Shown: positions 20,613 to 42,038 of the stretch, one piece after another
Layout of the letters: each line of letters begins with the position of its first letter
How positions within the stretch are numbered: position 1 is the stretch's first letter
Assembly (NCBI GenBank): GCA_016432345.1
Contig: CP066685.1
Location: 368,236 to 432,235 of the forward strand
Length of the DNA: 64,000 bases
Source of the DNA: Candidatus Levyibacteriota bacterium
Lineage (GTDB): Bacteria; Patescibacteriota; Microgenomatia; Levybacterales; UBA12049
Reading direction: 5' to 3'
Program-made: the position numbers and the translations under genes
The notes under the pieces: model-generated
Told to the model about the DNA's origin: nothing
What the model saw: only the letters and a program-made list of their open reading frames with translations
The model's database searches: none

Positions 20613-22331
20613 ATGAGATTTATTGCTTCTGTTAAAAGAGTATCGTTTTGGAATGTTATAATTTTTGGTTTTATTGTTTTTGCATTTTTTGTAAATGCCT
20701 TGCACGAAAGCTATCCAGACGAGTTCGATAATATCTTAGGTGGTTGGTATATTTTGCAGGGAAGACTTCCTTATATTGGATTTTTTACCCATCACGGTCC
20801 TGTTCCATATTTTATTGCTTCCATAGTTGCATTATTTAGCGGAGAATCTTTTGTCCGTTTTCGTATTTTTTATGCCTTTTTTCTTCTTTTTACTTTTGGG
20901 AGTATTTATTGGATTCTCAAAAAAACTATAGGAAAAGAGCATATTTTGTTTTATCCGCTGTTTATAGCATTTGTAGGAATAGAGTCAACTTATTATTGGA
21001 TGCAAATGCTTCTGGCCGATAATATTGCTGCCATCGCTTTTTTACCAGTCTATGCAATTATTTTACTAAAGGCATTTTATAAAAAATCTATCACAATACA
21101 AGATGTTGGACTAGTTGCAATTTTTTCCTCAATTGGATTATATTCGTCACTTACATATTCGTATCTTTTTATTATCGTCTCTTTTTCTATTCTATTTCTT
21201 TATTTTAAAGAGAATGGATTTCATCGACCGTTTTTTTCGCTGCGCAATGCCCGTCCTTTTATTATTCTTGCTGTTCCTCATCTGTTATTTTTTTTGTATT
21301 TATTAATAACAGGCAGTTTGCCAGATTACTTTTATCAAAATTACGTCTTTAATACGAAATACTATATATATAACTATCCTAGATCTCCCGAGTCTTCATT
21401 TATTAACCCTGTTCGGTATGCAATTCTTATTGCTCATTGGTTTTTTGTAAATTTCTATACGCTTTTAATCGGAGTTAAAACATTTGATTTTTCATTTCCG
21501 GTAAATATGACGATGGCTATGGGAGATACGTCGCTTTTTTTATATCTCTTATTAAGGAAACGTTATAAGCTTGCTGTTTTTACCCTTTTGGTTATGGTTT
21601 TTACCAATATTCGTAGCAATCCCATTCAGTCGGGTGAAAAGGATTATCAAGCTGGCGTATATAATTTTCTTTCGTTTTTTAATATTTTCTTTGTTTTGCC
21701 AGTACTTTGTAAATCAATAAGTGATGCAAAAGAAGAAACTGGAAGAAAAGTTGGTTATGGTTTTCTTATGGTGCTGACTGCTCTGTATTTCTTTTTTGGA
21801 TTTTCACATTTGTTGTTTAAATTCAATGAAAAAACCGTCTCCAAATATATGGGAGATCAAGCTCTTATTTATGATCGCCCCCAGCTTTCGCCAATTATTA
21901 ATAGTATCTTAACAAAAGAAGAGTATGCTTGGATTGGACCTTTTGAGTTTGAAGATCTTTTTTATCTTCATACCAAAATTCCTTCCAAATACCATATTCT
22001 TATTCCAGGAGTAGCAGAATCAGATAAATTACGTAACGAGATGCTGACAGATTTTGTGAAAAACAAACCCGTTATTGTCATATTAGAAACGCGTTTTACC
22101 TACTTAGGTAATGGGATTAATAACTACGGGGTTTTCTTTTTTGATTTTCTTAATAAAAATTATATAACATTGCTTAATTATAAAAATGAGAAAATAGCTT
22201 ATCGTTCGGTTGCTCCTGTAACATCGAGGGTGGATATTGAGACAAAAATGTTTATTCGAAAAGACAAGGTTAAGGAAGTGGTTCAGAAACTGCTCCGAAA
22301 TAATTATATAAAAGAAATTAATTCAAAATGA
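20613..22331 (+). CDS. Polytopic membrane protein with a C-terminal soluble domain, possible GT-C (unclassified)
   Basis: 572 aa. AGGA lies upstream of the ATG. The first loop is HESYPDEFDNILGGWYILQGRLPYIGFFTHHGPVPYF (an acidic DE motif). Many hydrophobic helices are followed by a polar tail of about 170 aa. No family recognised. Confidence 0.4.
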   Translation: MRFIASVKRVSFWNVIIFGFIVFAFFVNALHESYPDEFDNILGGWYILQGRLPYIGFFTHHGPVPYFIASIVALFSGESFVRFRIFYAFFLLFTFGSIYWILKKTIGKEHILFYPLFIAFVGIESTYYWMQMLLADNIAAIAFLPVYAIILLKAFYKKSITIQDVGLVAIFSSIGLYSSLTYSYLFIIVSFSILFLYFKENGFHRPFFSLRNARPFIILAVPHLLFFLYLLITGSLPDYFYQNYVFNTKYYIYNYPRSPESSFINPVRYAILIAHWFFVNFYTLLIGVKTFDFSFPVNMTMAMGDTSLFLYLLLRKRYKLAVFTLLVMVFTNIRSNPIQSGEKDYQAGVYNFLSFFNIFFVLPVLCKSISDAKEETGRKVGYGFLMVLTALYFFFGFSHLLFKFNEKTVSKYMGDQALIYDRPQLSPIINSILTKEEYAWIGPFEFEDLFYLHTKIPSKYHILIPGVAESDKLRNEMLTDFVKNKPVIVILETRFTYLGNGINNYGVFFFDFLNKNYITLLNYKNEKIAYRSVAPVTSRVDIETKMFIRKDKVKEVVQKLLRNNYIKEINSK

Positions 22332-24263
22332 TCCGGTTTTGATTCTGATGGAGGTGAGTATTTGATCCACTGCCTTTTCTATTTCTTTTGCGCGGTCATT
22401 TTTTATTTGTGACGGGCTGTTTGGTAAAAGTATAGCATGGAAAATATAAGATGCGGCTAGAAATGATTCGTAAGATGTCCCGCACCAATATTTTTCTTTG
22501 GTAACGCACCTTTTTTTTTGATAATTTTTTCCCAAAGTATTCATTTTAGAAACAATAGCGTTTGTAGAGAGCGAATTATTTTGAGCGGTGTTTGTGATAT
22601 TTAAAAGAGACAATGTTACTTCATCAGAGTACACAGATATTTTTTTGGGATATTCTTCTTTTACTTGCCAATACGACGGATACTCAAAGGCAATTGGAAA
22701 CCCGCTTTTTATAAAAGCTCTTTTTAACATCTCGTCAAGATATAAGTTGTACATTTGTTGATAAATTGATCTAAAACCCGGGATATCATTTGCTTTTTGT
22801 CTAAGCAAAATCATTGTTGGCAAATTTATTTTTTGTCTAAAATAAGCTGTTAATTCAATTTGCGTTAATATATCATCAGGAGTATCTTTTAATTTTGCTT
22901 CCAGCAAAGTTAGTTTTTTTTCAGTTTCTTGTGTTGGGTATAGCATTTTGGCAAGAGATGGATTTTGTGTCATTGCCGAAGGCGGCACGAAATATGTAAT
23001 TATGATCTCTGGATAATTCTTTGAGCTTATAAAACCGGCAAGGGCTTTTTTACTATTTTTCTGGTTTTGGGAAAAAATGCCGCCATAATCACCCCTTGTT
23101 CCATTGTGAATTTTAAGAAATGAAATAAAGGCTAAATTAAAAATGCCGTAGGCGATAATAAGAGAAATAAAAAGTATGGAAAATAAAATTTTTGACAATT
23201 TAATTTTTTTTAGAAAATAAACGAATGTATAGGATAAGAAAAGGAAAAGAAGAGGAAGCGCTGTAATATAGTAGTGCATAAGCGGTTCAACCCTGAAAAA
23301 GTAATACATAATAGATACCGCAATGGTTGTATAAATAAGAAAACGAGATTTCTTGTTTTGTTTATAGAAAAGGCACATGCCAATCGGTAAAAGTAAATAT
23401 GTAAGATAAAAAAGATATCGTATGATGTAGGTAAAAGGAAATGATTGTTTAAACACTAAAAAATCTTCTGTGCCAAATACAAAATTAAAATAGCCTGTTC
23501 CTAAAATTTGCAAGTTTCGCATAAAAACTGTTGCAGATGAAACAGCGGCAACTTTTTTTGCGGCAGCAGCAATTGCAAAACAATCAGGACAGCCGTTGTG
23601 TATTTCGTAATACAAAAAAGGAAGAAGCGGCAATAACCCAAGTAAGAATCCTAAAAAAGCATATTGAAGGGAAAATGACGATCGTTTTTCCACTAACAAA
23701 AAAATAGTAAGTGGCGCAATAAAAAATAAAGTGGATTGGTGAAGCTGTATTAGCAAAAGCGATAAGAATATGTATAGCGCCCAATACTTTTTTTTATTAT
23801 CAAAAACAATTACGTGGCTGCTCCATAAAAGACCAATTAGAAATGGCATAATTAGATCAGGCGCCCAAATTTTTCGAGAAAAAAGAATAGCCCAAGGCGA
23901 GACTGCCAAAAAGACTGCCGTAATAAAACCAGTAAGCGTTCCGTAGTAGCGTTTTATAAAAAGAAAAATTAAACCGATTGTTAAAGTGTTAACAAATCCA
24001 ATAAAAAAAGTTATGCCGATTGGATTAGTCGTAAAAAAAACAATAGGGAAGAGTAAATAATTAAAAAGCGGCGGATTTGGAATGCCCACGCTTGATACGG
24101 TTCCTAAAGCCGCAAAAGGATGTCCAAATAGCGGACGGGCTGCTAAGAATACATTAAGAGCTTCGTCTACTTTAAATTCAATCAGATCAAGGTTGCTAAG
24201 GCGAAAATATCCAGCCAGGCTAACAATAGCAATAAAGATAAAAATTGTATTTCTTTTCGACAT
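22323..24263 (-). CDS. ArnT/GT39-like GT-C membrane protein with a large C-terminal soluble domain (divergent paralog)
   Basis: 646 aa on the minus strand. Motifs YFRLSNLDLIEFKVDEALNVFLAARPLFGHPF and VSPWAILFSRKIW, then about 250 polar C-terminal residues. It overlaps the 3' end of 20613..22331 by 9 nt (convergent). Confidence 0.6.
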   Translation of the reverse strand: MSKRNTIFIFIAIVSLAGYFRLSNLDLIEFKVDEALNVFLAARPLFGHPFAALGTVSSVGIPNPPLFNYLLFPIVFFTTNPIGITFFIGFVNTLTIGLIFLFIKRYYGTLTGFITAVFLAVSPWAILFSRKIWAPDLIMPFLIGLLWSSHVIVFDNKKKYWALYIFLSLLLIQLHQSTLFFIAPLTIFLLVEKRSSFSLQYAFLGFLLGLLPLLPFLYYEIHNGCPDCFAIAAAAKKVAAVSSATVFMRNLQILGTGYFNFVFGTEDFLVFKQSFPFTYIIRYLFYLTYLLLPIGMCLFYKQNKKSRFLIYTTIAVSIMYYFFRVEPLMHYYITALPLLFLFLSYTFVYFLKKIKLSKILFSILFISLIIAYGIFNLAFISFLKIHNGTRGDYGGIFSQNQKNSKKALAGFISSKNYPEIIITYFVPPSAMTQNPSLAKMLYPTQETEKKLTLLEAKLKDTPDDILTQIELTAYFRQKINLPTMILLRQKANDIPGFRSIYQQMYNLYLDEMLKRAFIKSGFPIAFEYPSYWQVKEEYPKKISVYSDEVTLSLLNITNTAQNNSLSTNAIVSKMNTLGKNYQKKRCVTKEKYWCGTSYESFLAASYIFHAILLPNSPSQIKNDRAKEIEKAVDQILTSIRIKTGSF

Positions 24264-24306
24264 ACTCTGTTTATATTATACGCTGTTTTTTTTGTATAAT
24301 AGAGGA
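24264..24306. promoter_or_regulatory. 43-bp divergent intergenic region with back-to-back -10 elements
   Basis: On the + strand, an extended -10 TGTATAAT at 24293-24300 lies exactly 6 nt before the GTG at 24307. On the - strand, TATAAT (+ coordinates 24275-24280) lies 11 nt before the ATG at 24263. A T8 tract (24286-24293) lies between them. The call is based on sequence pattern only. Confidence 0.3.
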
Positions 24307-25959
24307 GTGAGGTATTTTCTATTAGTTTGCATAATCATTTTAGCCATATTTCTTCGTTTTTTTCAGCTTGGACAAAATCCGTCATCACTCACCTGGGACG
24401 AAGTTGCATGGGGTTATAATGCCTATACTCTTGGTATAGACGGAAGAGACGAGTTTGGCCGTTTTTTACCGCTTGATTACCTTGAATCTTTTGGTGATTT
24501 TAAGCCGCCTCTTTATGCTTACCTTGTGATAATTCCTGTCAAAATATTCGGTCTTAATGAGTTTGCAGTACGTTTTCCATCTGCGTTTTTTGGCGTTTTA
24601 ACTGTATTTGCAACATATTTTTTAACTAAAGAGTTATTTAATAAATCACCTTATTCATTAAAAATTAGAAATTTGAAATTAGAAATTTCAGAAGTAGCAG
24701 CGCTGCTTTTGGCGGTTTCGCCCTGGCATGTCAATCTTTCTCGGGCGGCTTTTGAGGCAAATATTTCCACATTTTTTATTGTAGTTGGGGTTTTATTTTT
24801 CCTTTTATGGAGAAACAAAAATTATGGTTATGCATTGCCAACTTCGATAGTTTCATTTGTCCTTTCTCTTTATGTGTTTAATACTGCGCGTGTAGTTTCA
24901 CCATTGTTATTTCTTGTTTTGGCCATTGTATCATTGAAACAGTTTTGGAATCGCAAAATACAGGTAGCTATTGCAGTTATTGTTGGGGGTATAATTCTTT
25001 TTCCTCTTTTAAAATTTCTTTTTACACCTCAAGCAAGCCTTCGTTTTCAAGAAGTAAACATTTTTTCCGATATTGGGATAGTTCAGAGAGCAAATACCTA
25101 TATAGAAAATGATGGCAATACCACAATTTCAAAAATTATTCATAATCGCCGATGGGGTTATACAATTGAATTTTTACGTCATTATTTTGATCATTTTTCC
25201 GCTCGTTTCCTTTTTCTTCGAGGAGATGGAAATCCAAAATTTTCCACCCAAGATGTTGGAAGTATGTATTTATGGGACCTACCATTTTTTATTATTGGAG
25301 TACTTTTCCTTTTTCGCTATCGCCCTGGGCATTGGTGGTTAGTGCCGGTGTGGTTGCTGATAGGCATTGTTCCTGCGGCAACAGCAAGAGAAACACCACA
25401 TGCATTACGTATAGAAACGACTCTGCCAACATTTCAGATATTTGTTGCTTTTGGCATTGTTATTTTTTATCAGTGGATTTTTTCGATTAAAAATAGATTA
25501 AAAAGGAGAACAGTGATCAATGTCAGTATAGCGCTTCTCTTTTTACAAATTTTATACTATCTTCATGGATATTACATACATTATCCAAGAGAATATTCAG
25601 GCCAGTGGCAATATGGTTACAAAGAGGCAATAGCATACATACAAAATGTTGAAAAAAACTATGATGCGATTTATTTCACCGATAGTCTTGGAAGACCGCA
25701 TATATACTATGCATTTTATGCAAAAATTTATCCATCATTGTATAGAAAAGATGCAGTAGTTTGGAGAGAAATGCCTTATGGTTTTGTGCATGTAGATAAA
25801 ATAGGAAAAGTATATTTTATGAGAGATTTAATTCCAAAAGATACAAAAAAGAGAAATCTCTATATTGATGATCCAAGAAATGTTCCGTCAGACGCAAAAA
25901 TACTAAAAAATTTTAAGCTGCTTAACGGCGAAGACAGTTTAATTGCTTATACTAAATAG
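24307..25959 (+). CDS. PMT_2/GT39-type GT-C glycosyltransferase, paralog B3
   Basis: The track ORF (24082) extends 225 nt antisense into the neighbouring gene. The only plausible in-frame start after that gene is GTG 24307 (VRYFLLVCIIILAIFLRFFQLG), which gives an N-terminus the same length as the paralogs. Motifs TWDEVAWGYNAYTLGIDGRDEFGRFLPLDYLESFGDFKPPLY, VRFPSAFFGVLTV, VSPWHVNLSR and ETPHALR. Confidence 0.7.
   Translation: MRYFLLVCIIILAIFLRFFQLGQNPSSLTWDEVAWGYNAYTLGIDGRDEFGRFLPLDYLESFGDFKPPLYAYLVIIPVKIFGLNEFAVRFPSAFFGVLTVFATYFLTKELFNKSPYSLKIRNLKLEISEVAALLLAVSPWHVNLSRAAFEANISTFFIVVGVLFFLLWRNKNYGYALPTSIVSFVLSLYVFNTARVVSPLLFLVLAIVSLKQFWNRKIQVAIAVIVGGIILFPLLKFLFTPQASLRFQEVNIFSDIGIVQRANTYIENDGNTTISKIIHNRRWGYTIEFLRHYFDHFSARFLFLRGDGNPKFSTQDVGSMYLWDLPFFIIGVLFLFRYRPGHWWLVPVWLLIGIVPAATARETPHALRIETTLPTFQIFVAFGIVIFYQWIFSIKNRLKRRTVINVSIALLFLQILYYLHGYYIHYPREYSGQWQYGYKEAIAYIQNVEKNYDAIYFTDSLGRPHIYYAFYAKIYPSLYRKDAVVWREMPYGFVHVDKIGKVYFMRDLIPKDTKKRNLYIDDPRNVPSDAKILKNFKLLNGEDSLIAYTK
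24662..24689 (+). repeat. Imperfect heptamer array (AAATTAG AAATTTG AAATTAG AAATTTC), equivalent to a 14-mer x2, in GT39 paralog B3
   Basis: Read directly. It encodes KIRNLKLEI. It lies at the same loop as the perfect AAATTGG array of paralog B4. Confidence 0.85.
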
Positions 25960-25962
25960 CTC

Positions 25963-27648
25963 ATGTTTAAAAAAATTATTATATTTATTTTTATTGTTTT
26001 TATCGCAAGTGTTTTGCGTTTGTGGCAATTAGGAAATATTCCTCCCTCTCCAGATTGGGATGAAGCAGCGCTTGCTTATAGTGCGTATTCGATTATGCAG
26101 ACTGGAAAGGACGAGTATGGTATTTCTTTTCCTATTATTCTTCGATCGTTTGATGATTACAAACCGGCACTTTACTCATATATAGCAATTCCCTTTATTA
26201 AGATTTTTGGTTTGAATGTTATTGCAATTCGTCTTCCATCTGCTGTTTTTGGCATTACAACTATTATCGCAGTATATTTTTTAATGAAAGAATTGTTTAA
26301 GAATACCACCTTAAAATTGGAAATTGGAAATTGGAAATTGGAAATTCCAGAAGTAGCTATGCTGCTTCTGGCTATTTCCCCATGGCATTTGCAATTTTCC
26401 CGTATCGCTTTTGAATCAAATCTTGGCTTGTCTCTTAATATTTTTGCCATATTTTTATTTGTTAAAGGATTAAAAAAACCAATGCTGCTGCCATTTTCAG
26501 CTTTTTTTCTAGGATTAAGTCTTTATGCTTATCAGAGTGAAAAAGTATTTGTTCCGCTGCTTTGTCTAATTCTTGTTTTGGTGTATAGAAAAACATTTTT
26601 CAGATTGCCCAAAAAATACATAATATTTGCATTTTTTATTGGTATAGCGCTTACAGTTCCTATTGCTTATTACACTTTTACTCAAAAAGCGGCATTAGCC
26701 AGAGCGCAGGGGGTGAGTATTTTTACAGAAAGTACGCCGTTTGTCAAACAATATACAAAAAGAATTGTTATAGACAAAAAAAATCATGACATTTTTGGTT
26801 TTTTTGTTGATAACAGAAGAATAGCTTATGTAAAGGCTGTAATTGACGGATATTTGTCTCATTATAATTTATATTGGCTATTTCTTTCCGGGGATATTTC
26901 CCGTCATCATGCGCCAGAAATGGGTCTTTTGTATCTTTGGGAACTGCCGTTTTTGTTTATAGGAATTTATCAAATGGTATTTGGTTTTTTTCCAAAAAAC
27001 ACTAAATATTTAATTTTTTTGTGGTTTTTTGCCGCTCCAATTCCTGCCTCTGTAACAACTGGCGTGCCGCACGCTGTAAGAACACTCAATTTTTTGCCTA
27101 CTTTTCAGATTTTTATTGCGATAGGACTTATTGCCGCTTTTGCAAAAATATCAAGTATTAAATATCAAGTATTAAATATAATAGGTTTGCGATATACACT
27201 TATTTCCTGTTTTTTGTTAATGTTCACTTTTAATTTTTTGTATTATTTAAATCAATATTTTGTGCAGCAAAACAATTTTTATTCCGAAAGTTGGCAATAT
27301 GGTTATAAAGAAGCAATAGACGATGTAAAAAAGATAGAAAATAGATATCAAAAAGTTATTGTTTCAAATCAGCCTCATTTAGACCAGTCATATATGTTTT
27401 TTCTTTTTTATCTTCAGTATCCACCAAATCTTTACCAGGAGGAAGCAAAGAAAAATAATTCTGGTGGTTTTGCCGAAACGCACCAGTTTGGCAAGTATAT
27501 TTTCCGTCCGATTGTTTGGGAAAACGAAAAAAAAGACGGTAAAACTCTATATGTTGGAAGGCAGGAAGACTTTCACGATTCAGCACATGTTATAAAAAAA
27601 ATTTTCTTTCTTAATGGAAAGGCGGCAATTTCTATAGTTGATGGATAA
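25963..27648 (+). CDS. PMT_2/GT39-type GT-C glycosyltransferase, paralog B4
   Basis: 561 aa. Motifs LWQLGNIPPSPDWDEAALAYSAYSIMQTGKDEYGISFPIILRSFDDYKPALY, IRLPSAVFGITT, ISPWHLQFSR, GVPHAVRT and WQYGYKEAI. Confidence 0.75.
   Translation: MFKKIIIFIFIVFIASVLRLWQLGNIPPSPDWDEAALAYSAYSIMQTGKDEYGISFPIILRSFDDYKPALYSYIAIPFIKIFGLNVIAIRLPSAVFGITTIIAVYFLMKELFKNTTLKLEIGNWKLEIPEVAMLLLAISPWHLQFSRIAFESNLGLSLNIFAIFLFVKGLKKPMLLPFSAFFLGLSLYAYQSEKVFVPLLCLILVLVYRKTFFRLPKKYIIFAFFIGIALTVPIAYYTFTQKAALARAQGVSIFTESTPFVKQYTKRIVIDKKNHDIFGFFVDNRRIAYVKAVIDGYLSHYNLYWLFLSGDISRHHAPEMGLLYLWELPFLFIGIYQMVFGFFPKNTKYLIFLWFFAAPIPASVTTGVPHAVRTLNFLPTFQIFIAIGLIAAFAKISSIKYQVLNIIGLRYTLISCFLLMFTFNFLYYLNQYFVQQNNFYSESWQYGYKEAIDDVKKIENRYQKVIVSNQPHLDQSYMFFLFYLQYPPNLYQEEAKKNNSGGFAETHQFGKYIFRPIVWENEKKDGKTLYVGRQEDFHDSAHVIKKIFFLNGKAAISIVDG
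26314..26346 (+). repeat. Perfect heptanucleotide tandem repeat (AAATTGG)x4 + AAATT inside GT39 paralog B4
   Basis: Read directly: aaattgg aaattgg aaattgg aaattgg aaatt. It encodes KLEIGNWKLEI. The unit is not divisible by 3. Confidence 0.95.
27146..27179 (+). repeat. 14-nt tandem repeat (AAATATCAAGTATT) x2.4 inside GT39 paralog B4
   Basis: Read directly: aaatatcaagtatt aaatatcaagtatt aaatat. It encodes KISSIKYQVLNI. The unit is not divisible by 3. Confidence 0.9.
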
Positions 27649-28889: not shown

Positions 28890-30529
28890 AGAAAATTAAA
28901 AAATTCAATCTATTTTTCTTTGTTATTATAATTGCTATTTTTTTTCGTTTTTATCATCTTTCTTTTGCGCCTCCGAGTGTTTCTTTAGACGAAGCATCCA
29001 TTGGCTACAATGCTTATTCAATTCTCAAAACAGGAGCGGACGAATACGGAAATAAATTTCCTATTTTACTTCGCGCTTATGATGATTGGAGACCTGCCTT
29101 ATATGTTTATTTAGTTATGCCATTTGTTCAGTTATTTGACCTTACGGCATTTGCTGTTCGTTTACCTTCAGTAATTTTGTCGGTAATAACTGTTATAGCA
29201 GTCTATTTTTTAACTAAAGAGCTTTTTAAAAATTCATTGAAAATTTCAGAAGTAGCTATGCTGCTTCTGGCAATATCGCCCTGGCATATATACATTTCCC
29301 GGCTTGGCCATGAGGTAAATCTTTCTCTTTCATTTTGGATTTTTGGGCTATTATTTTTTTTCAAGGGTATTAATAAAAATACCGAAAAGTTTAACTGGAA
29401 AAAGGTTTGCTACTATTCAATTAGCGCTCTATTTTTTGCTATTTCTTTTGGAAGTTACCAAAGCGCAAAACTTTTTATTCCCATAATGGTTCTAATTTTA
29501 ATAGTGCTTTACCACAAAGAATTATTTGCGAGAAAGAAAGAAATCATCTTGCCTTTTGTGATTGGCGTCGTATTTTTACTACCAACTGTTTTATCCTCAT
29601 TTGAGCCAAATGCACTTATTCGTTTACAGGGCACAAATATATTTGCCGTAGAAAAAAACCGTTACTATCAGGAATCATTATTACTAAAAAAAGCAAAAGA
29701 AGATGGTGATATTATTGGCGAGATTGTTCACAATAGACGAATATTAACAACAAGAATCTTTTTCGAACAATACATAAGTCATTTTAATTACAAATGGCTT
29801 TTTGCGAATAGTGGAAAAGAAAATCATAAAACTTCTGGAGTGGGGCTATTTTATTCCTGGGAAGCAGTTTTTATACTTTTAGGTTTTTTAGTCTTTTTCA
29901 AAGAAAAAATTCCTTTAAAAATAAAACTATTTCTTATATTTTGGATTGCTGTAGCGCCGTTATCTTCAGCCATAACCACAGATGCTCCGCATGCAATGCG
30001 TACATATTCTGTTTTGCCTGCCCCTCAAATTATTGAAGCATATGGTATTTATTATATTTTTTCTTTGTTTAAGAAATATTCTAAACTAATTTATACCTTA
30101 TTTTATTTAATAATGATAGGAACAATTTTTTATTTTGCAAGACACTATTTTTTTATTTTTCCAAAAAAAGAATCTTCTTCATTTCAATATGCGCTTTATC
30201 AGGCAGTACCTTTTGTTTTATCTTGCGAGAATAGATATAATAGAATTGTTTTTTCAAATAAAGATAATTTGTATCAATCCTATATGTTTTTCTTGTTCTA
30301 TAGCCGATATGATCCAAAAAAATATCAAATGCAAGACGGGACAATTTCGGGGGGATTTGCAAAAACGCATGCCTTTGATAAATATGAGTTCCGATCAATA
30401 GCGTATGACATTGAGAAAGAAAAATCATTACTTATTGGTAATAAATCAGATTTTCCAAAAGATAAAAAGCCTCTTGCGGTATTTAAAGATCTTGATGGAA
30501 AGGAAGCTATTGCAGCAGTAGAAAGATGA
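28886..30529 (+). CDS. PMT_2/GT39-type GT-C glycosyltransferase, paralog B5
   Basis: 547 aa. Motifs FYHLSFAPPSVSLDEASIGYNAYSILKTGADEYGNKFPILLRAYDDWRPALY, VRLPSVILSVITV, ISPWHIYISR and DAPHAMRT. ATGA overlap with the upstream gene. Confidence 0.75.
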   Translation: MKKIKKFNLFFFVIIIAIFFRFYHLSFAPPSVSLDEASIGYNAYSILKTGADEYGNKFPILLRAYDDWRPALYVYLVMPFVQLFDLTAFAVRLPSVILSVITVIAVYFLTKELFKNSLKISEVAMLLLAISPWHIYISRLGHEVNLSLSFWIFGLLFFFKGINKNTEKFNWKKVCYYSISALFFAISFGSYQSAKLFIPIMVLILIVLYHKELFARKKEIILPFVIGVVFLLPTVLSSFEPNALIRLQGTNIFAVEKNRYYQESLLLKKAKEDGDIIGEIVHNRRILTTRIFFEQYISHFNYKWLFANSGKENHKTSGVGLFYSWEAVFILLGFLVFFKEKIPLKIKLFLIFWIAVAPLSSAITTDAPHAMRTYSVLPAPQIIEAYGIYYIFSLFKKYSKLIYTLFYLIMIGTIFYFARHYFFIFPKKESSSFQYALYQAVPFVLSCENRYNRIVFSNKDNLYQSYMFFLFYSRYDPKKYQMQDGTISGGFAKTHAFDKYEFRSIAYDIEKEKSLLIGNKSDFPKDKKPLAVFKDLDGKEAIAAVER

Positions 30530-32034
30530 AGAAATTATACATTTTTTTACTTACCTTGTTGGTAATATTTTTAAGTCTAGTTCCTCGAGTTACGGATTTG
30601 CTAAGTGGAAATTACCTTTTTTCATATGATCAAGGAAGAGATTATTTAGCTGTAAAAAGTATTGTTGTTGATAAAAAACTAACTCTTATTGGTTCAGAAA
30701 TTGGCGCTGGAATGGCCTACTTTAGAGGAATTTTCCATGGCCCTTTCCATTACTATTTTCTGGCTGTTCCTTTTATACTTTTAAATGGCGATCCGTATGG
30801 AGGTATTGTTTTAACTTTTTTATATGGCATGCTTGCAGTAATATTTAGTTTTTATTTAGGAAAAAAACTGTTTGGTTTATATGGAGGATTAATGGTTGCG
30901 CTTCTTGTTGCAATATCTCCTCCTCTTATTTCTTCTTCCAGATTTGTATGGAACTCGCATGGGGCTGTTGTATTTATTTTGCTTGCTTTTATATGTGTAT
31001 ATAAAATTTCTTTTAATAAAAAATATATGGGCAGATACATTTTTTTAGCCGCGTTTTTTTCTGGTTTTGTTTACAATTTTCAACTAGCTATTGCAATTCC
31101 AATGTGTTTGGCGCTGTTTATTTACAGCGCTTTAATTTTAAAAATAAAAGATTATAAACTATATCTCTTATTGTTTATCGGCTTTTTTTTAGCTTTTTCC
31201 CCTTTTTTTCTATTTGAAATTAAACATGATTTTGGAGCATTGAGAGGTATTACTGAATACTCATTTGAGAATAAAATTCCCCTTACGTCAAAGCTTATTG
31301 AGCGTATCACAAAAGAACGAATTGGACTTTTCCAATATAATTTTTTAGATACTTTTCCGCGTGTTTCCTATATTAATACAGATGTTTCGTTGGTAGTTTT
31401 TATTGGTATATATTTATATTTATTTTTTTTGGAGAGAGATATCAAGATAAAAAGATATTTGTCGTATTTAGGGATTTTACCTTTATCGCATTTTTTTATA
31501 CTATATATTTTAAGAACCACGGCGTATGTTTATTTTCTTATAGATCTTAATTTTGTATATATCTTCTTATTTGCTTATGTTATAGTTTCTGCTTATAGAA
31601 ACAAGAATAATTTTTTATATTTTGTACTTATTGTGGTTTTTTCGGCCTTAGTTGCTCAAGGGATAAAAAGCGCGATTAAGACATTTCAGTATGATTACCA
31701 AGACTATGGCGGAATTGCAAAAATTATTGGCAAAAAAGATTTAATTGATTTTATCTATAAAAATGCAAAAGGTGAAAAGTTTGGAGTGCTTTTTTTTAGT
31801 CCGCCTATCTATACATATCCTTATAATTATATAGTGTGGTGGTACGGATCTAGAAAATATCATTATGTGCCGCATCAAGAAAAAAAGGGATTATTTTATT
31901 TGGCCATAGAGCCAGATGGGTCAAAACTCTGGAGCTATAATGGTTGGTTAGAGACAGTAATAAAAACAGGAAAGATTATAGAAACAAAAACATTGCCAAG
32001 TGGGTTTATTGTTCAAAAAAGAATTGGAGAATAA
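30526..32034 (+). CDS. ArnT/PMT-like GT-C membrane protein, family C paralog C3
   Basis: 502 aa and polytopic. First loop YLFSYDQGRDYLAVKSIVVDKKLTLIGSEIGAGMAYFRGIFHGPFHYY. ATGA overlap with the upstream gene. Confidence 0.5.
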   Translation: MKKLYIFLLTLLVIFLSLVPRVTDLLSGNYLFSYDQGRDYLAVKSIVVDKKLTLIGSEIGAGMAYFRGIFHGPFHYYFLAVPFILLNGDPYGGIVLTFLYGMLAVIFSFYLGKKLFGLYGGLMVALLVAISPPLISSSRFVWNSHGAVVFILLAFICVYKISFNKKYMGRYIFLAAFFSGFVYNFQLAIAIPMCLALFIYSALILKIKDYKLYLLLFIGFFLAFSPFFLFEIKHDFGALRGITEYSFENKIPLTSKLIERITKERIGLFQYNFLDTFPRVSYINTDVSLVVFIGIYLYLFFLERDIKIKRYLSYLGILPLSHFFILYILRTTAYVYFLIDLNFVYIFLFAYVIVSAYRNKNNFLYFVLIVVFSALVAQGIKSAIKTFQYDYQDYGGIAKIIGKKDLIDFIYKNAKGEKFGVLFFSPPIYTYPYNYIVWWYGSRKYHYVPHQEKKGLFYLAIEPDGSKLWSYNGWLETVIKTGKIIETKTLPSGFIVQKRIGE

Positions 32035-32036
32035 TA

Positions 32037-33686
32037 GTGCAAACAAAGAAAAATTTTCTTTATATTTCTTTTATTATTTTTTTTGGCGTCGTAGCGATTT
32101 TGGATTTTTTTCATCCTGGTTTGCCAATAACCCATGATGGGCAGGATCACGTTGCTCGAATTGCAAATTTTTATCAAAATTTGACTGAGGGAAGTATTAT
32201 TCCAAGATGGGCCGCAAATCTTAATTGGGGATATGGGCACCCAATTTTGATGTTTTTGTATCCGTTACCCTCCTATATTGCATCGCTTTTTCATTTTTTG
32301 GGATTTTCATTGATTGATAGTTTAAAGATTGTTTTTGGCATGTCGTTTATTGCAAGCGGTTTTGCTATGTATTTGTGGATAAAAGAATTATTGGGAGAGG
32401 AGCCAGGACTAGTAGCTGGAATTTTATATATGTTTGCACCTTATCGTTTTGTAGATTTATATGTGCGCGGAGCAATAGGCGAACATGTTGCTTTTGTTTT
32501 TCCGCCGCTTATTTGCTACTTTCTTTTAAAAATGTCAAAGAAATATTCATATTGGTATGTAGTTGGTGGAGCAGTATCGCTTGCCAGTCTTGTTCTTTCG
32601 CATAACGCGATAACAATTATGTTTGTGCCAGTAATAATACTTTATGCCGTTTATTTAATTTATCAAAACGATGATAAAAAACTAATCGCTATACGCTATA
32701 TGCTTATTGCTATCTTTGGTTTTGGCCTTTCTGCTTTTTTTGGGTTTCCTGCTTTCTTTGAGGGAAAGTATACATTACGGGATATTGTTACAAAAAATGA
32801 ATATGCAAAAAGCTTTGTTAATTGGAAAGATTTTCTTTATGGTTTATGGAGTTATGGCGGTACGGGATTATTTACCGTACAGATCGGTATTGTTCAGTGG
32901 TTTGTAGTCATTTGCATGACTCCACTTGTTATATTTTATAGGCAGAAGAGAAATATACAATTGCTTATTGTAAGTACTTTTATTCTTTTCTTTTCGACAC
33001 TTTTTCTCATGATCTCGCAATCAAAAGTAGTATGGGAAACATTAACGATATTGCAAAAATTTCAGTTTCCTTGGAGATTTCTTTCAATCATAGTGTTTCT
33101 AGCCGCGGTCAGCGGAGGTTTTTTTATTTTTTGTTTGCCTAAAAAATTTAAATCTGGAGCAATAGTTCTTATTATTTGCTTTTCTCTTTTCTTCAATAAA
33201 GACTATTGGCATGCAAAAGGATTTCTGCAAAAAGATCAAGCGTTTTTTAAGAGTATTTATAATGGTACAACAGACACGGGCGAAAGCGCTCCAGTTTGGT
33301 CGGTTCGTTTTATGGAAAAAATGCCAAAAGCGCATAGCGAAGTGATAAGCGGAAAAGCGACCATAAAAGAAGTAGAGCGTACTTCGATAAAACATGTATA
33401 TGAAATAGAGGTTAATAGCGATTCTGCGCGAATAAGAGAGAATACTCTATATTTTCCTGGCTGGAAAATTATTAATAACAAAAAAAATATAACTCCTGAA
33501 TTTCAGGACCCTGCGAATAGAGGTCTTATGACATATTTTCTTGGAAAAGGGAAATACACTGTTTTTATAATGTTTGAAGAAACAAAGCTGCGTTTTGCGG
33601 CAGACATAATAAGCGTTTTTAGTTTGGTATCTATAATTATTTTAGGTATACTTAAAAAGAGGATACTATGCCTTCGCTTTCGGTAG
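32037..33686 (+). CDS. HDGxxH..PRW-type (COG5617/'PTPS-related') polytopic membrane protein, paralog D2
   Basis: The track ORF (31944) overlaps the upstream gene by 91 nt. GTG at 32037 is preceded by GGAGA (32026-32030). Motifs THDGQDHVARIANFYQNLTEGSIIPRWAANLNWGYGHPILMFLYPLPSY, QFPWRF and the C-terminal NTLYFPGWKIINNKK. Confidence 0.55.
   Translation: MQTKKNFLYISFIIFFGVVAILDFFHPGLPITHDGQDHVARIANFYQNLTEGSIIPRWAANLNWGYGHPILMFLYPLPSYIASLFHFLGFSLIDSLKIVFGMSFIASGFAMYLWIKELLGEEPGLVAGILYMFAPYRFVDLYVRGAIGEHVAFVFPPLICYFLLKMSKKYSYWYVVGGAVSLASLVLSHNAITIMFVPVIILYAVYLIYQNDDKKLIAIRYMLIAIFGFGLSAFFGFPAFFEGKYTLRDIVTKNEYAKSFVNWKDFLYGLWSYGGTGLFTVQIGIVQWFVVICMTPLVIFYRQKRNIQLLIVSTFILFFSTLFLMISQSKVVWETLTILQKFQFPWRFLSIIVFLAAVSGGFFIFCLPKKFKSGAIVLIICFSLFFNKDYWHAKGFLQKDQAFFKSIYNGTTDTGESAPVWSVRFMEKMPKAHSEVISGKATIKEVERTSIKHVYEIEVNSDSARIRENTLYFPGWKIINNKKNITPEFQDPANRGLMTYFLGKGKYTVFIMFEETKLRFAADIISVFSLVSIIILGILKKRILCLRFR
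32682..32716 (+). repeat. Decayed CTATACG-type heptamer array in paralog D2
   Basis: Read directly: ctaatcg ctatacg ctatatg cttattg ctatctt. It encodes LIAIRYMLIAIF. It lies at the position homologous to the perfect arrays at 878 and 41043. Confidence 0.7.
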
Positions 33687-34435
33687 TGCTTGCTACTTAT
33701 AATGAAGAAAAAAATCTTCCAGACTGCTTAAAATCTGTAAGAGGTATTACAGACGAGATTGTTGTTGTTGATGGCGGATCAAAAGATAAGACAGTGGATG
33801 TTGCAAAGAAGTACGGAGCGAGAGTAATAATAACCACAAATCCTTCAATATTTCATATTAATAAGCAAAAAGCCATAGATATAGCAACAAAAGATTGGAT
33901 TTTACAACTGGATGGAGACGAACGCGTCACACCAGAGCTAAAAAAAGAAATTCTAGATGTGTTAGATAAGAAACCTGAAACCAATGGATATTGGATGCCT
34001 AGAAAAAATTGGTTTCTAGGCAGGTTTCTTATGAAGGGTGGTCAATATCCAGATTATACATTGCGGTTATATAGAAAAGGTAAAGGAAGACTGCCTCAAA
34101 TGAGTGTGCATGAACAAGCAATTGTAGAAGGCAATGTTGAGTATCTAAAAAATCCTCTTCTTCATATAGCGTACCCAAGTTTTTCTGGTTATCTTACAAG
34201 ATTAGATCGTTATACCAATTTAATTGCTAGCGAGTTAAGAGTAAATAAGGTTGGTTACAGTCCAATTATTAGTGTCAAATACATGCTTTTTTTACCATTG
34301 TGGTGGTTTTTTCTAACCTATTTTAGGCATAAGGGATTTATGGATTCGTGGCAAGGATTAATTTTTTCCTTTTTCTCTGCTTTGAGATTTCCTATTGCAT
34401 ATATAAAATTTATAAAGAAGATAAATGAAAATTAA
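33668..34435 (+). CDS. Glycosyltransferase family 2 with a C-terminal membrane anchor
   Basis: 255 aa. Motifs LSVVLATYNEEKNL, VVVDGGSKDKT and LQLDGDERV, with a hydrophobic tail LFLPLWWFFLTYF. It sits directly upstream of a family C GT-C gene. Confidence 0.75.
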   Translation: MPSLSVVLATYNEEKNLPDCLKSVRGITDEIVVVDGGSKDKTVDVAKKYGARVIITTNPSIFHINKQKAIDIATKDWILQLDGDERVTPELKKEILDVLDKKPETNGYWMPRKNWFLGRFLMKGGQYPDYTLRLYRKGKGRLPQMSVHEQAIVEGNVEYLKNPLLHIAYPSFSGYLTRLDRYTNLIASELRVNKVGYSPIISVKYMLFLPLWWFFLTYFRHKGFMDSWQGLIFSFFSALRFPIAYIKFIKKINEN

Positions 34436-40409: not shown

Positions 40410-42038
40410 ATGAAAGGATTTCTTTCTATTTTTTTAGTTTTGTTTTTTTCTTTTGTTGCTGCAAGATCTTTACTAGCTCCAGGATTGCCGCCAACACATG
40501 ATGGAGAATATCATATTATTAGATTTTACGAATTTGACAAGACTTTAAGAGCAGGAGATTTATACCCCCGCTGGGCGCAGGATTTAAATAATGGATATGG
40601 CGTTCCATTATTTAACTATGTCTACCCGTTACCAAATTATATTGCCTCTTTTTTTCATCTATTCGGAGTAAGTTTTATTGATGCATTTAAATTAAGCATG
40701 TTTTTTGCCGCAATAGTAGGTTCAATAGCAATGTATTTATGGGCAAAGATTTTTTGGGGAGAAGTGGGTGGTGTTGTCTCATCTGTTTTTTATACTTTTG
40801 CCCCATATCACTTTGTTGATATATATGTCAGGGGTTCTGTTGGTGAAGTATGGGCATTAGCGTTTTTCCCTGCATTTCTTTGGTCAGCAACAGTATTTAT
40901 AAAAGAAAGAAGACCAAGATTTGTCGTTTTGTCCGGGATTTTTCTCTCTCTAATTATATTTTCTCATAATATTTTAGCATTAATGTTTTTTCCCTTCGCT
41001 CTTTTTTATGTTCTCTTTTTAATTTTTTTTAGCAAAGAAAAACTATACGCTATACGCTATACGCTATACGCTATTTTTTTGGGTCTAGGTTTGTCTGCAA
41101 TTTTTTGGTTGCCCGCCATTTTTGAAGCAAATTATGTTAAAGGGTTACAAATATATGATATTGAAAATAATTTTCCAGAATTGTATCAACTATTTATTCC
41201 ATCGTGGGGGTCTGGTTTTTCAAATGATGATTTACCGAATCAAATGTCTCCTCAAATAGGAATTGCAAACATATTTTCTTTATTAGGGACAGTTATCGTA
41301 TTGATTATTCTTTTGAGGAGAAAACAAAAAAGTGTTTCATTACTAATTTTGTTTTTTCTTTTATGGTTTACTGTCGTATTTTTTTTACTGCTTCCTGCAT
41401 CTTTGCCAATTTGGTTGCATGTACCTTTGATGAATTATTTTCAATTTCCGTGGCGTCTGTTGAGTCTTGAGATTTTATTTTTGGCATTTCTAGCCGGGAG
41501 TATGATAATGATTTGGAAGAATAAGATCTTTCTGGCGCTGATGGTTATTTTTCCAATAGTGTTAGGTGTTGGCTATGCAAAGCCGCCATTCTATTTTAAT
41601 AGAGATGATATATATTATATTTCCAGATCAAATTTTATTGATGGAACAAACAGTCCAGGAGATTTATTTAATACGGTATGGTTTAATAAGGGTTTAAAAA
41701 AACAAAAAGAAAAAATTTTAGTAGGGCATGGTATGTTGACAGATGTCCAAATAAATCCTACAAAATATTTATTACGTGTTGAAGTAAATTCAGATTCTCA
41801 GGTAACAGTGAATACAGTATATTTTCCTGGATGGACGGCAATGATTAATAAAAAAGAAATAGATACAAAACCTGATAATAATGGTTTAATTACTTTTTTT
41901 GTCCCTGAAAGTACGAATTATATTGTGCTTTTTTTTAAAAATACTTTTGTTAGAATGATTGCAACAAGTATTTCTTTGGTATCTTTTTTTTCGATAATAC
42001 TGTATTTAGTATTATATTTTCGTTATGAAAAAAAATAA
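40410..42038 (+). CDS. HDGxxH..PRW-type (COG5617/'PTPS-related') polytopic membrane protein, paralog D3
   Basis: 542 aa. Motifs THDGEYHIIRFYEFDKTLRAGDLYPRWAQDLNNGYGVPLFNYVYPLPNY, QFPWRL and the C-terminal NTVYFPGWTAMINKKE...GLITFFVPE. Confidence 0.55.
   Translation: MKGFLSIFLVLFFSFVAARSLLAPGLPPTHDGEYHIIRFYEFDKTLRAGDLYPRWAQDLNNGYGVPLFNYVYPLPNYIASFFHLFGVSFIDAFKLSMFFAAIVGSIAMYLWAKIFWGEVGGVVSSVFYTFAPYHFVDIYVRGSVGEVWALAFFPAFLWSATVFIKERRPRFVVLSGIFLSLIIFSHNILALMFFPFALFYVLFLIFFSKEKLYAIRYTLYAIFLGLGLSAIFWLPAIFEANYVKGLQIYDIENNFPELYQLFIPSWGSGFSNDDLPNQMSPQIGIANIFSLLGTVIVLIILLRRKQKSVSLLILFFLLWFTVVFFLLLPASLPIWLHVPLMNYFQFPWRLLSLEILFLAFLAGSMIMIWKNKIFLALMVIFPIVLGVGYAKPPFYFNRDDIYYISRSNFIDGTNSPGDLFNTVWFNKGLKKQKEKILVGHGMLTDVQINPTKYLLRVEVNSDSQVTVNTVYFPGWTAMINKKEIDTKPDNNGLITFFVPESTNYIVLFFKNTFVRMIATSISLVSFFSIILYLVLYFRYEKK
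41043..41074 (+). repeat. Perfect heptanucleotide tandem repeat (CTATACG)x4 + CTAT inside paralog D3
   Basis: Read directly: ctatacg ctatacg ctatacg ctatacg ctat. It encodes LYAIRYTLYAI. The unit and copy number are identical to 878..907 in a different gene family. Confidence 0.95.

Follow-up and report, generated by a model that had tools for sequence, protein, structure and literature searches.

A conserved, in-frame heptanucleotide array followed by a stem-loop in a GT39-like glycosyltransferase gene of Candidatus Levyibacteriota

We describe a perfect heptanucleotide array within B4, a gene for a GT-C membrane glycosyltransferase, in a 64,000-nucleotide stretch of the genome of a Candidatus Levyibacteriota bacterium (GenBank assembly GCA_016432345.1, contig CP066685.1, positions 368,236 to 432,235; hereafter the window, numbered from its first letter). 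A sequence-only reading of the window had taken this tract for a recently expanding repeat that might act as an ON/OFF switch of the gene. The tract is real and statistically exceptional. Comparison with related genomes indicates that it is old and conserved at the nucleotide level, neither recent nor private to this genome, since the same array, in the same codons and at the same position, recurs in orthologues that share only 57-66% DNA identity with B4. The variants visible among relatives always preserve the reading frame and, on present evidence, the locus is a length-variable, hairpin-encoding loop and not a demonstrated switch. The nucleotide-level freezing of the array, together with the compensatory conservation of a stem-loop that begins at the first base past it, is the most interesting part of the locus.

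Results

The heptanucleotide array of B4

The 33 nt of the array consist of four copies of aaattgg followed by aaatt, and Tandem Repeats Finder (TRF) reports a period of 7, 4.7 copies and 100% matches. Starting 351 nt, or 117 codons, into the gene (26314 - 25963), the tract covers codons 118-128, 21% of the way into an open reading frame (ORF) of 561 codons, and is read as AAA TTG GAA ATT GGA AAT TGG AAA TTG GAA ATT, or KLEIGNWKLEI; copy number, position and peptide are thus as the sequence-only reading gave them. When units of 2-12 nt, at least 3 copies, at least 14 bp and perfect identity are required, the window holds only three tandem repeats, all of them heptamers of 4.3-4.7 copies. Heptamers of at least 4 copies appeared in none of 100 third-order Markov simulations, and a 19-nt pattern searched with up to 3 mismatches gave 5 matches against 0.4 expected. 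The GC content of the genome is 32.6%.

As 7 and 3 share no factor, only steps of three units (21 nt, 7 amino acids) keep the frame. In silico, the loss of one unit or the gain of two leads to a stop at codon 128 or 135, the gain of one or the loss of two leads to a stop at codon 152 or 145, and a change of three units in either direction retains the frame. The earlier claim that a one-unit change would frameshift the gene is therefore borne out in silico, with stops at codons 128-152. B4 accordingly shares two properties with contingency loci: an uninterrupted repeat inside the ORF whose unit is not divisible by three, and an in silico truncation of the product by the gain or loss of a single unit.

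Copy number and codon identity in orthologues

DNA of relatives was drawn from contigs that encode homologues, from a genome scan for (AAATTGG)x3 and from a metagenome scan for the junction AAATTGGAAATTCCAGARGT; both scans are blind to reading frame, and 7 of the ~13 distinct GT39 sequences were found by them. The perfect 33-nt array of 4.7 units occurs at the same codon position as in B4 in L128, L135, L138 and L132, while L015 has five units (a 35-nt array), L001, L004 and L005 have 4.7 units with 1-3 substitutions, and L127 and L139 have 1.7 units. At the protein level these array-bearing orthologues are 35-62% identical to B4. Undecayed arrays among the ~13 distinct sequences therefore have either 1.7 or 4.7-5.0 units, all in frame, and none of 2.7, 3.7, 5.7 or 6.7 units was found among them. 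The 1.7- and 4.7-unit alleles differ by 21 nt, or 7 amino acids; indeed L127 aligns with L128, L135 and L138 at 79-82% DNA identity with a 21-nt indel at the array as the sole gap. Copy number does not differ between near-identical sequences of different samples (L001/L002/L003, L005/L006, L127/L139 and, at 97% DNA identity, L135/L138; those of L001-L003, L135 and L138 belong to a Hainich groundwater series), and no OFF allele occurs within the ~13 sequences. The sequence-only reading had suggested comparing the loops of B4 and its paralogues B3 and B5 across related genomes: the loop does prove variable in length, but no frame-breaking allele appears, an outcome that the reading itself had named as the mark of a length-variable loop in place of the proposed switch.

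The codons of the array are frozen. At positions where two orthologues share an amino acid, the codon is identical in 266 of 266 cases within the array, L015 included despite its protein identity of 35%, compared with 3300 of 6289 (52%) in the rest of the gene, 28-55% in diverged pairs and 75% in the codons of the stem-loop. Protein-level selection alone cannot yield such identity in the array. Each base of the unit takes codon positions 1, 2 and 3 in successive units, so that an array which remains periodic has no freely silent site.

The stem-loop beside the array

A stem-loop, CCAGAAGTAGC / TAT / GCTGCTTCTGG, begins at the first base past the array of B4, within the codons for PEVAMLLLA at the start of the fourth transmembrane helix (TM4). 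Its RNA fold reaches -17 kcal/mol with z = -4.7, a value that none of 200 shuffles equalled. A stem-loop stands at the same offset in 11 of 11 genes with a KLEI-type loop, with z from -2.8 to -4.7 and including those with 1.7-unit and degenerate arrays; it is missing in 9 array-less paralogues. The stems of B5 and B4 are nearly identical in base sequence while their proteins are only 41% identical, and three unrelated stem sequences are found among the 11 genes. The stems of L005 (TTAGCATTGC/GCAATGCTAA) and L015 (CTCGCCGC/GCGGTGAG) differ from that of B4, so that the fold is retained through changes of sequence.

Rfam has no family at the stem-loop site; the only two matches, at E 0.38 and 0.48, lie elsewhere and far below their gathering scores. 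A consensus scan called neither a terminator nor a promoter at the site. Programmed frameshifting was ruled out by inspection, as the stem has no X XXY YYZ slippery site before it.

The encoded hairpin and its loop

KLEI-GN-WKLEI is confidently modelled as a beta-hairpin between TM3 and TM4. In the AlphaFold2 (AF2) model of B4, strands 119-121 and 124-126 flank the GN turn with predicted local distance difference test (pLDDT) scores of 93-94, and they lie between the helices at 86-111 and 128-137. Helix order, counted from the first loop with its presumed catalytic D-E pair, places the TM3-TM4 loop probably on the outer face of the membrane, on the same side as that first loop.

Among 120 homologues, the stretch from KELF to LLAISPWH ranges from no insert to inserts of up to ~35 residues, and by our tally about 20 of the 120 have an 11-residue hairpin-like insert that alternates hydrophobic and polar residues. 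Some inserts are close to the B4 peptide (FKLEVGNWKLEI, PKLEIGKWKLEI and SKLEILNWKLEI), and others are hairpin-like as protein while their DNA repeat has plainly decayed (KLEARGFTIDI, FKLEVKGFVFDI and FALDIGNFKLDI). Homologue P0020 has KLEI alone in the loop, and P0087 has a degenerate 24-residue loop that is the sole hint of longer arrays. Most of the 120 lack the hairpin loop, which is therefore dispensable.

Other sequences also occupy this loop. The inserts of P0040, P0068, P0082, P0098 and P0115 include LRLRSGQA, FDFAQGK, FDSAQDK or TSEVF in some cases, and a single DNA string read in two frames can give both LRLRSGQ and FDFAQGK; judged from the peptides only, this suggests a DNA-level element inserted regardless of frame. 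Low-complexity inserts of the KSEIRNSKQIQN type are found in further homologues. The TM3-TM4 loop of a paralogous GT39 gene from a single-cell genome (GCA_000380825.1) is occupied by (AAATACA)x4.86 (KEIQNTKYKIQNT; L005, 8647-8680), so different heptamer units fill the same loop in different paralogues.

AAATTGG arrays in other genomes and their link to stems

The scan found (AAATTGG)x3 in at least 120 DNA stretches of species-representative genomes. The counts that follow refer to the matches listed, 123 arrays, which come from many classes of the candidate phyla radiation (CPR) and from metagenome-assembled genomes (MAGs) labelled Acidobacteriota, Nitrospirae, Planctomycetes, Gemmatimonadota and Bacteroidota. 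Perfect runs measure 21-45 nt, mostly 26-34. The unit has no stop codon in any of the six frames, and 62 of the 123 arrays lie in ORFs that, read in the frame observed, have no stop for 60 codons or more to either side. CCAATTT is on the sense strand in 65 arrays and AAATTGG in 17. Read in either direction, the unit gives an alternating pattern with a two-residue turn, KLEI-GN-W or FQFPI-SN, and such a peptide may be the reason why the unit is tolerated.

Essential genes are among the hosts. Arrays were found in genes for LeuRS, at one site in L074, L125, L086 and L100 and at a second in L021, L058, L101 and L108, and for SecA (L034), PolA (L069), TopA (L059), LigA (L107), a Mur ligase (L026), an IleRS-like synthetase and a GT4 enzyme. 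The arrays of essential genes have 3.4-5.4 units and are in frame, some of them at the same site in several species despite diverged flanks. They thus persist as tolerated inserts where an OFF state would be lethal. Five of the 123 arrays were flagged as candidate OFF alleles and one is convincing: in L057 (5994-6023) the gene for the amidase GatA is split at a 4.29-unit array, and the loss of one unit or the gain of two restores an ORF of 496 residues. Since GatA is an essential protein and the name of the record points to a long-read MAG, regulation is less likely here than a minor variant or an error of assembly. The other four were set aside: one is ambiguous, and three come from high-GC contigs, in which spurious ORFs of some length are frequent.

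The stem-loop is not confined to the GT39 genes. In 23 of the 123 arrays a perfect stem (6 bp or more) starts between -2 and +3 nt from the 3' end of the AAATTGG strand, compared with 2.1% of 2380 random positions (odds ratio 11, p = 5e-14). On the opposite side of the arrays the rate is 5.7%, so the link is polar. It is also phase-locked, as in 17 of the 23 the array ends ...TTGGAAATT directly before the stem, mostly in ORFs with CCAATTT as the sense strand. Heptamer arrays of other units show no enrichment, with such a stem beside 5 of 69. About 80% of the AAATTGG arrays have no adjacent stem. A coarse minimum free energy (MFE) test that compared the 36 nt beside the arrays with control sequence found no overall difference (p = 0.39) and a difference in the tail only, where 19% against 8.6% reached -10 kcal/mol or lower; it took the position-specific test to reveal the link. 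AAATTGG is not commoner in viral contigs than the controls, with 11 matches against 6 and 13 for two controls of matched composition and 5 for CTATACG.

A further array was noted on the contig of orthologue P0005 (L001, 18305-18336), where an unrelated GT2 gene has a perfect (AATTGGA)x4.57 that encodes IIGNWKLEIGN. It is followed by a CCGAC-GTA-GTCGG inverted repeat that folds no better than shuffles (z = -0.03), and the orthologous GT2 gene of the window (33668-34435) has no array at that place. Intergenic heptamer arrays occur in seemingly non-CPR MAGs (L044, L055, L072, L090, L092, L094 and L122, and also L035, L046, L064, L095 and L111), either beside a small palindrome of the ccgttcacgg type or paired with an inverted copy of themselves that a short spacer separates from them. 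In these MAGs the repeat seems to be put to another use, possibly a mobile or terminator-like one. Several array-bearing contigs are recorded as members of unrelated phyla, L071 and L082 as Nitrospira sp. Bin_21_1 and L015, among others, as Gammaproteobacteria, yet their GC content is 35-40% and their genes resemble those of the CPR; L015, for example, has a GT39 gene with the same loop. This mismatch suggests that public entries were wrongly binned or labelled.

Dominance of period 7

Heptamers are the preferred period well beyond the window. In 836 kb around the genome hits listed there are 63 heptamer arrays of other units, in addition to 126 AAATTGG arrays from the scan itself, against 21 arrays of other periods between 2 and 15, and in 129.5 kb of CPR loci that had been selected through protein homology the counts are 9 and 2. 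The two other perfect repeats of the window are both CTATACG arrays (Table 1), which stand at aligned positions of the YfhO gene Y1 and the PTPS_related gene Y2, whose proteins are 32% identical over 152 residues. In orthologues of Y2 at 63-65% identity, every base of units 1, 2 and 4 is unchanged and unit 3 alone differs, and 120 homologues show no length variation in the array segment, so that here the freezing is independent of visible length turnover. The codons concerned, CTA, TAC, GCT, ATA, CGC and ACG, are ones for which a low frequency would be expected in an AT-rich genome.

Discussion

We propose that B4 carries an old in-frame heptanucleotide microsatellite that encodes an optional 11-residue hairpin, changes length in three-unit steps and is kept by slippage or micro-conversion, an explanation to which we give about an even chance. 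The passage from 4.7 to 1.7 units would, as the simplest event, be a slippage deletion of 21 nt in one step. Repeated slippage or micro-conversion would erase single-unit mutations and is the most likely cause of the periodicity. Arrays that become interrupted would decay to a hairpin conserved as protein alone, as in the usual life cycle of a microsatellite. The stem-loop would be part of the same module as the array and might, more speculatively, promote slippage. Single-unit slips must arise under this proposal and would truncate the protein at codons 128-152. Several observations weigh against the proposal. The 7.7-unit intermediates that it leads one to expect are absent among undecayed arrays, with P0087 as no more than a hint, and an increase from 1.7 to 4.7 units would need out-of-frame intermediates or a multi-unit event, neither of which was observed. 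The array of Y2 is frozen without any change in length among 120 homologues, which favours a function at the nucleotide level. Furthermore, turnover covers neither the compensatory conservation of the stem-loop nor the link of stems to AAATTGG arrays in unrelated genes. Slippage and micro-conversion turnover, selection for mutability and a function of the sequence itself thus remain as candidates for what maintains the periodicity.

Selection for mutability is at the centre of the idea that B4 is a contingency locus, in which single-unit slipped-strand mispairing would toggle the gene ON and OFF and so vary a surface glycan. An uninterrupted non-triplet unit 21% into the ORF, with early stops in both shifted frames, is what such a locus would show, and perfect periodicity would be the expected product of that selection. 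B4 is one of more than ten GT-C paralogues and presumably dispensable, heptamers dominate the perfect repeats of the 129.5 kb of CPR loci, and the GatA array of L057, one unit out of frame, shows that single-unit differences occur. Heptanucleotide simple sequence repeats (SSRs) are, moreover, known or proposed mediators of phase variation in H. influenzae (PMC2651432). We nevertheless consider this explanation unlikely. None of the ~13 distinct GT39 sequences is out of frame, where free drift would give that outcome with a chance of about (1/3)^13, and near-identical sequences from different samples are constant in copy number. The 33 nt of 4.7 units are short beside the 13-38 units of hmw-associated tracts in H. 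influenzae, if not beside the 1-7 of one candidate there (PMC2651432), the AAATTGG arrays of essential single-copy genes demonstrate that perfect arrays persist without a switching role, and the literature searched gives no link between SSR phase variation and the CPR. If the sequence itself is what matters, array and stem-loop might be selected together as nucleic acid, with the peptide a tolerated by-product, and could serve as a binding platform, a site of RNA processing or stability, a pause site or a site for a recombination or replication factor. The frozen synonymous sites of the array (266/266) and, to a lesser extent, of the stem-loop (75%) against a background of 52% argue for such a cis-acting element. 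So do the stem-loops of all 11 KLEI-type genes, built from three unrelated stems and missing from the 9 array-less paralogues, the polar and phase-locked link to stems in unrelated genes (23 of the 123 arrays listed against 2.1% of random positions) with no such link for the 69 arrays of other units, the bias towards CCAATTT as the sense strand (65 against 17), and the Y2 array, which keeps presumably rare codons base for base at constant length. The site, however, has no Rfam family and no terminator-like or promoter-like call, and the array is dispensable: L127 and L139 show a deletion of it, many homologues have it only in decayed form, and most have none. About four fifths of the AAATTGG arrays listed have no adjacent stem, they are no commoner in viral contigs than the controls, and the coexistence of AAATTGG, CTATACG and AAATATC in one genome argues against a single sequence-specific reader. 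On balance a cis-acting element is improbable as well.

A plain protein feature, in which the hairpin is selected as protein and the DNA repeat follows from codon bias or chance, is very improbable. The hairpin is confidently modelled, hairpin-like 11-mers persist in homologues whose DNA repeat must be gone, and AAA, TTG, GAA, ATT, GGA and AAT are common codons in AT-rich genomes such as this one. Codon bias cannot explain complete codon identity in the array against 52% elsewhere, though, and this largely refutes the reading; the CTATACG arrays are equally frozen despite codons expected to be rare, none of the 100 simulations gave such an array, and the loop is missing from most homologues. 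A last and quite doubtful possibility is that (GGAAATT)n and the immediately following stem-loop form a distinct, polar and phase-locked module that a specific process makes or exploits, that has spread through genes, some of them essential, of CPR and other uncultured bacteria and that is kept at the nucleotide level. Hairpin-targeted templated repeat addition, template switching or recognition by a trans-acting factor might be that process, in which case heptamer arrays would be coding-sequence elements of a class not described before and not products of ordinary slippage.

The locus has partial counterparts among known systems. SSR contingency loci occur in surface glycosyltransferase and adhesin genes of Haemophilus, Neisseria and Campylobacter (PMC2651432; PMC8262952), and heptanucleotide tracts of H. 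influenzae number 13-38 units at the hmw loci, with one candidate at 1-7 (PMC2651432). B4 resembles these loci in its uninterrupted non-triplet repeat in the 5' part of a surface-modifying and probably dispensable gene that a one-unit slip would truncate, and it differs from them in having only 4.7 units, no out-of-frame allele and a copy number kept across deep divergence. It differs also in that near-identical sequences have the same length and similar arrays stand in essential genes elsewhere, and the hosts of SSR contingency loci are host-adapted pathogens, whereas that of B4 is a free-living or epibiotic CPR bacterium.

The short tandemly repeated repetitive (STRR) sequences of heterocystous cyanobacteria are family-specific units, such as CCCCAGT, that are present in high copy number and mainly between genes. 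Heptanucleotide STRR sequences were reportedly described from these cyanobacteria by Mazel and colleagues in 1990, and Elhai and colleagues are said to have found small hairpin-forming dispersed repeats inside them in 2008. The arrays described here share with STRR sequences the heptamer as the preferred period (all three perfect repeats of the window, 9 against 2 in the CPR loci and 63 against 21 around the genome hits) and an association with short hairpins. They differ in being short (~30 nt), genic, in frame and conserved in orthologues and paralogues, and in occurring in the CPR and other uncultured lineages; their units AAATTGG, CTATACG and AAATATC, their place within genes and their Levyibacteriota host do not fit the definition of STRR. 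A parallel for a glycosyltransferase whose alleles differ by whole in-frame steps of 7 residues is found in the fucosyltransferases of Helicobacter pylori, where heptad repeats (7 amino acids, 21 nt) vary in number and act as an 'enzymatic ruler'. The H. pylori unit is 21 nt long and builds a stalk that sets product length, whereas the unit of B4 has 7 nt and gives a loop hairpin with states of 4 and 11 residues.

The literature searched has no paper with this repeat or its peptides, nor any that connects SSRs, heptanucleotide ones included, with Patescibacteria or the CPR. A claim of phase variation for a CPR surface glycosyltransferase is left unsupported and is replaced by a testable picture, a loop that changes in steps of 7 residues. 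The dominance of heptamers among the perfect repeats of these glycosylation islands, their base-level freezing across orthologues and paralogues that are otherwise near saturation at synonymous sites, and their in-frame presence in essential genes are hard to square with ordinary microsatellites. Should turnover be the right explanation, these genomes carry many frameshift hot spots, some of them in essential genes, with consequences for mutation load and for the reliability of gene calls in MAGs. Should a sequence-specific process be at work instead, this would be a new element of coding DNA, and the polar link between AAATTGG and stems would be its signature.

Host gene, paralogues and neighbourhood

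The product of B4 scores 35.1 bits (cut-off 26.1, E = 1.9e-8) against the Pfam family PF13231 PMT_2 and matches, at 100% identity, the NCBI entry 'glycosyltransferase family 39 protein [Candidatus Levyibacteriota bacterium]', with the next-closest protein in the protein collection at 76% identity. A sequence search against solved structures gave no detectable match, and a fold search was used instead. The AF2 model, built with 59 homologues, has a pLDDT of 91.6 and a predicted TM-score (pTM) of 0.92, and its best Foldseek matches are AglB, STT3, ArnT, PglB and Pmt4 (probability 1.00, TM-score 0.49-0.55, 12-14% sequence identity in the structural alignments), which points to a GT-C fold. D33 and E34 in the first extracytoplasmic loop are invariant across the 59 homologues and, by analogy with the family, are probably catalytic. 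B4 is thus like ArnT (5ezm/5f15), PglB, AglB, STT3 and Pmt4 in fold, in the acidic pair of the first loop and in its PMT_2 match, but unlike them in having no sequence match to the solved structures and in its hairpin insert, which is missing from most homologues. The gene stands in a glycosylation island, a long plus-strand run of GT-C genes (PMT_2, YfhO and PTPS_related) and GT2 genes.

The features of the window are collected in Table 1. As the sequence-only reading had reported, paralogue B3 has an imperfect repeat in the same loop, B5 has a single copy and a loop shorter by 10 residues (KNSLKIS against KNTTLKLEIGNWKLEIP), and B1 and B2 have no repeat there. L132, with its full 4.7-unit array, is an orthologue of the B5 type. 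The ORF listed for B3 (24082-25959) extends 5' across the end of a minus-strand ORF (22323-24263), and by comparison with the paralogues the true start of B3 is probably an in-frame GTG at 24307 (MRYFLLVCIII...).

Table 1. The B4 gene and the repeats and stem-loops of the window
Feature	Position	Strand	Sequence, peptide or host	Evidence
B4 gene, GT-C membrane glycosyltransferase (PMT_2 / GT39-like)	25963..27648	+	561 amino acids	ORF, Pfam, AF2, Foldseek
B4 array	26314..26346	+	(AAATTGG)x4.71, perfect	sequence, repeat finder, simulations
B4 stem-loop	26347..26371	+	CCAGAAGTAGC / TAT / GCTGCTTCTGG	RNA fold
Second heptamer site in B4	27146..27179	+	AAATATC AAGTATT, x2.4 as a 14-mer, perfect 14-nt period	TRF
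B3 degenerate array	24662..24689	+	AAATTAG AAATTTG AAATTAG AAATTTC, perfect 14-nt period; KIRNLKLEI	TRF, sequence
B3 stem-loop, same offset	24688..24712	+	U/CAGAAGUAGC ... GCUGCUUUUGG	RNA fold, -12.3 kcal/mol, z = -2.8
B5 single unit	29240..29246	+	aaaattt	sequence
B5 stem-loop	29246..29270	+		RNA fold, -14.9 kcal/mol, z = -4.2
Y1 array	878-907		(CTATACG)x4.3, perfect; KLYAIRYTLYA; in YfhO gene Y1 (167-2407)	
Y2 array	41043-41074		(CTATACG)x4.6, perfect; KLYAIRYTLYA; in PTPS_related gene Y2 (40410-42038)	
Third CTATACG copy, degenerate	32682-32700		CTAATCGCTATACGCTATA; KLIAIRYMLIA; in PTPS_related ORF (31944-33686)	

The second heptamer site of B4 falls near codons 395-404, in an inter-helix loop that is modelled with low confidence (pLDDT 65 for the block 401-410). 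Orthologues have (AAATATC)x4.86 in L004 (2103-2136) and x3.57 in L005 (11211-11235) at this site. Another membrane protein encoded on L005 has (AATCAAA)x4.43 at 986-1016.

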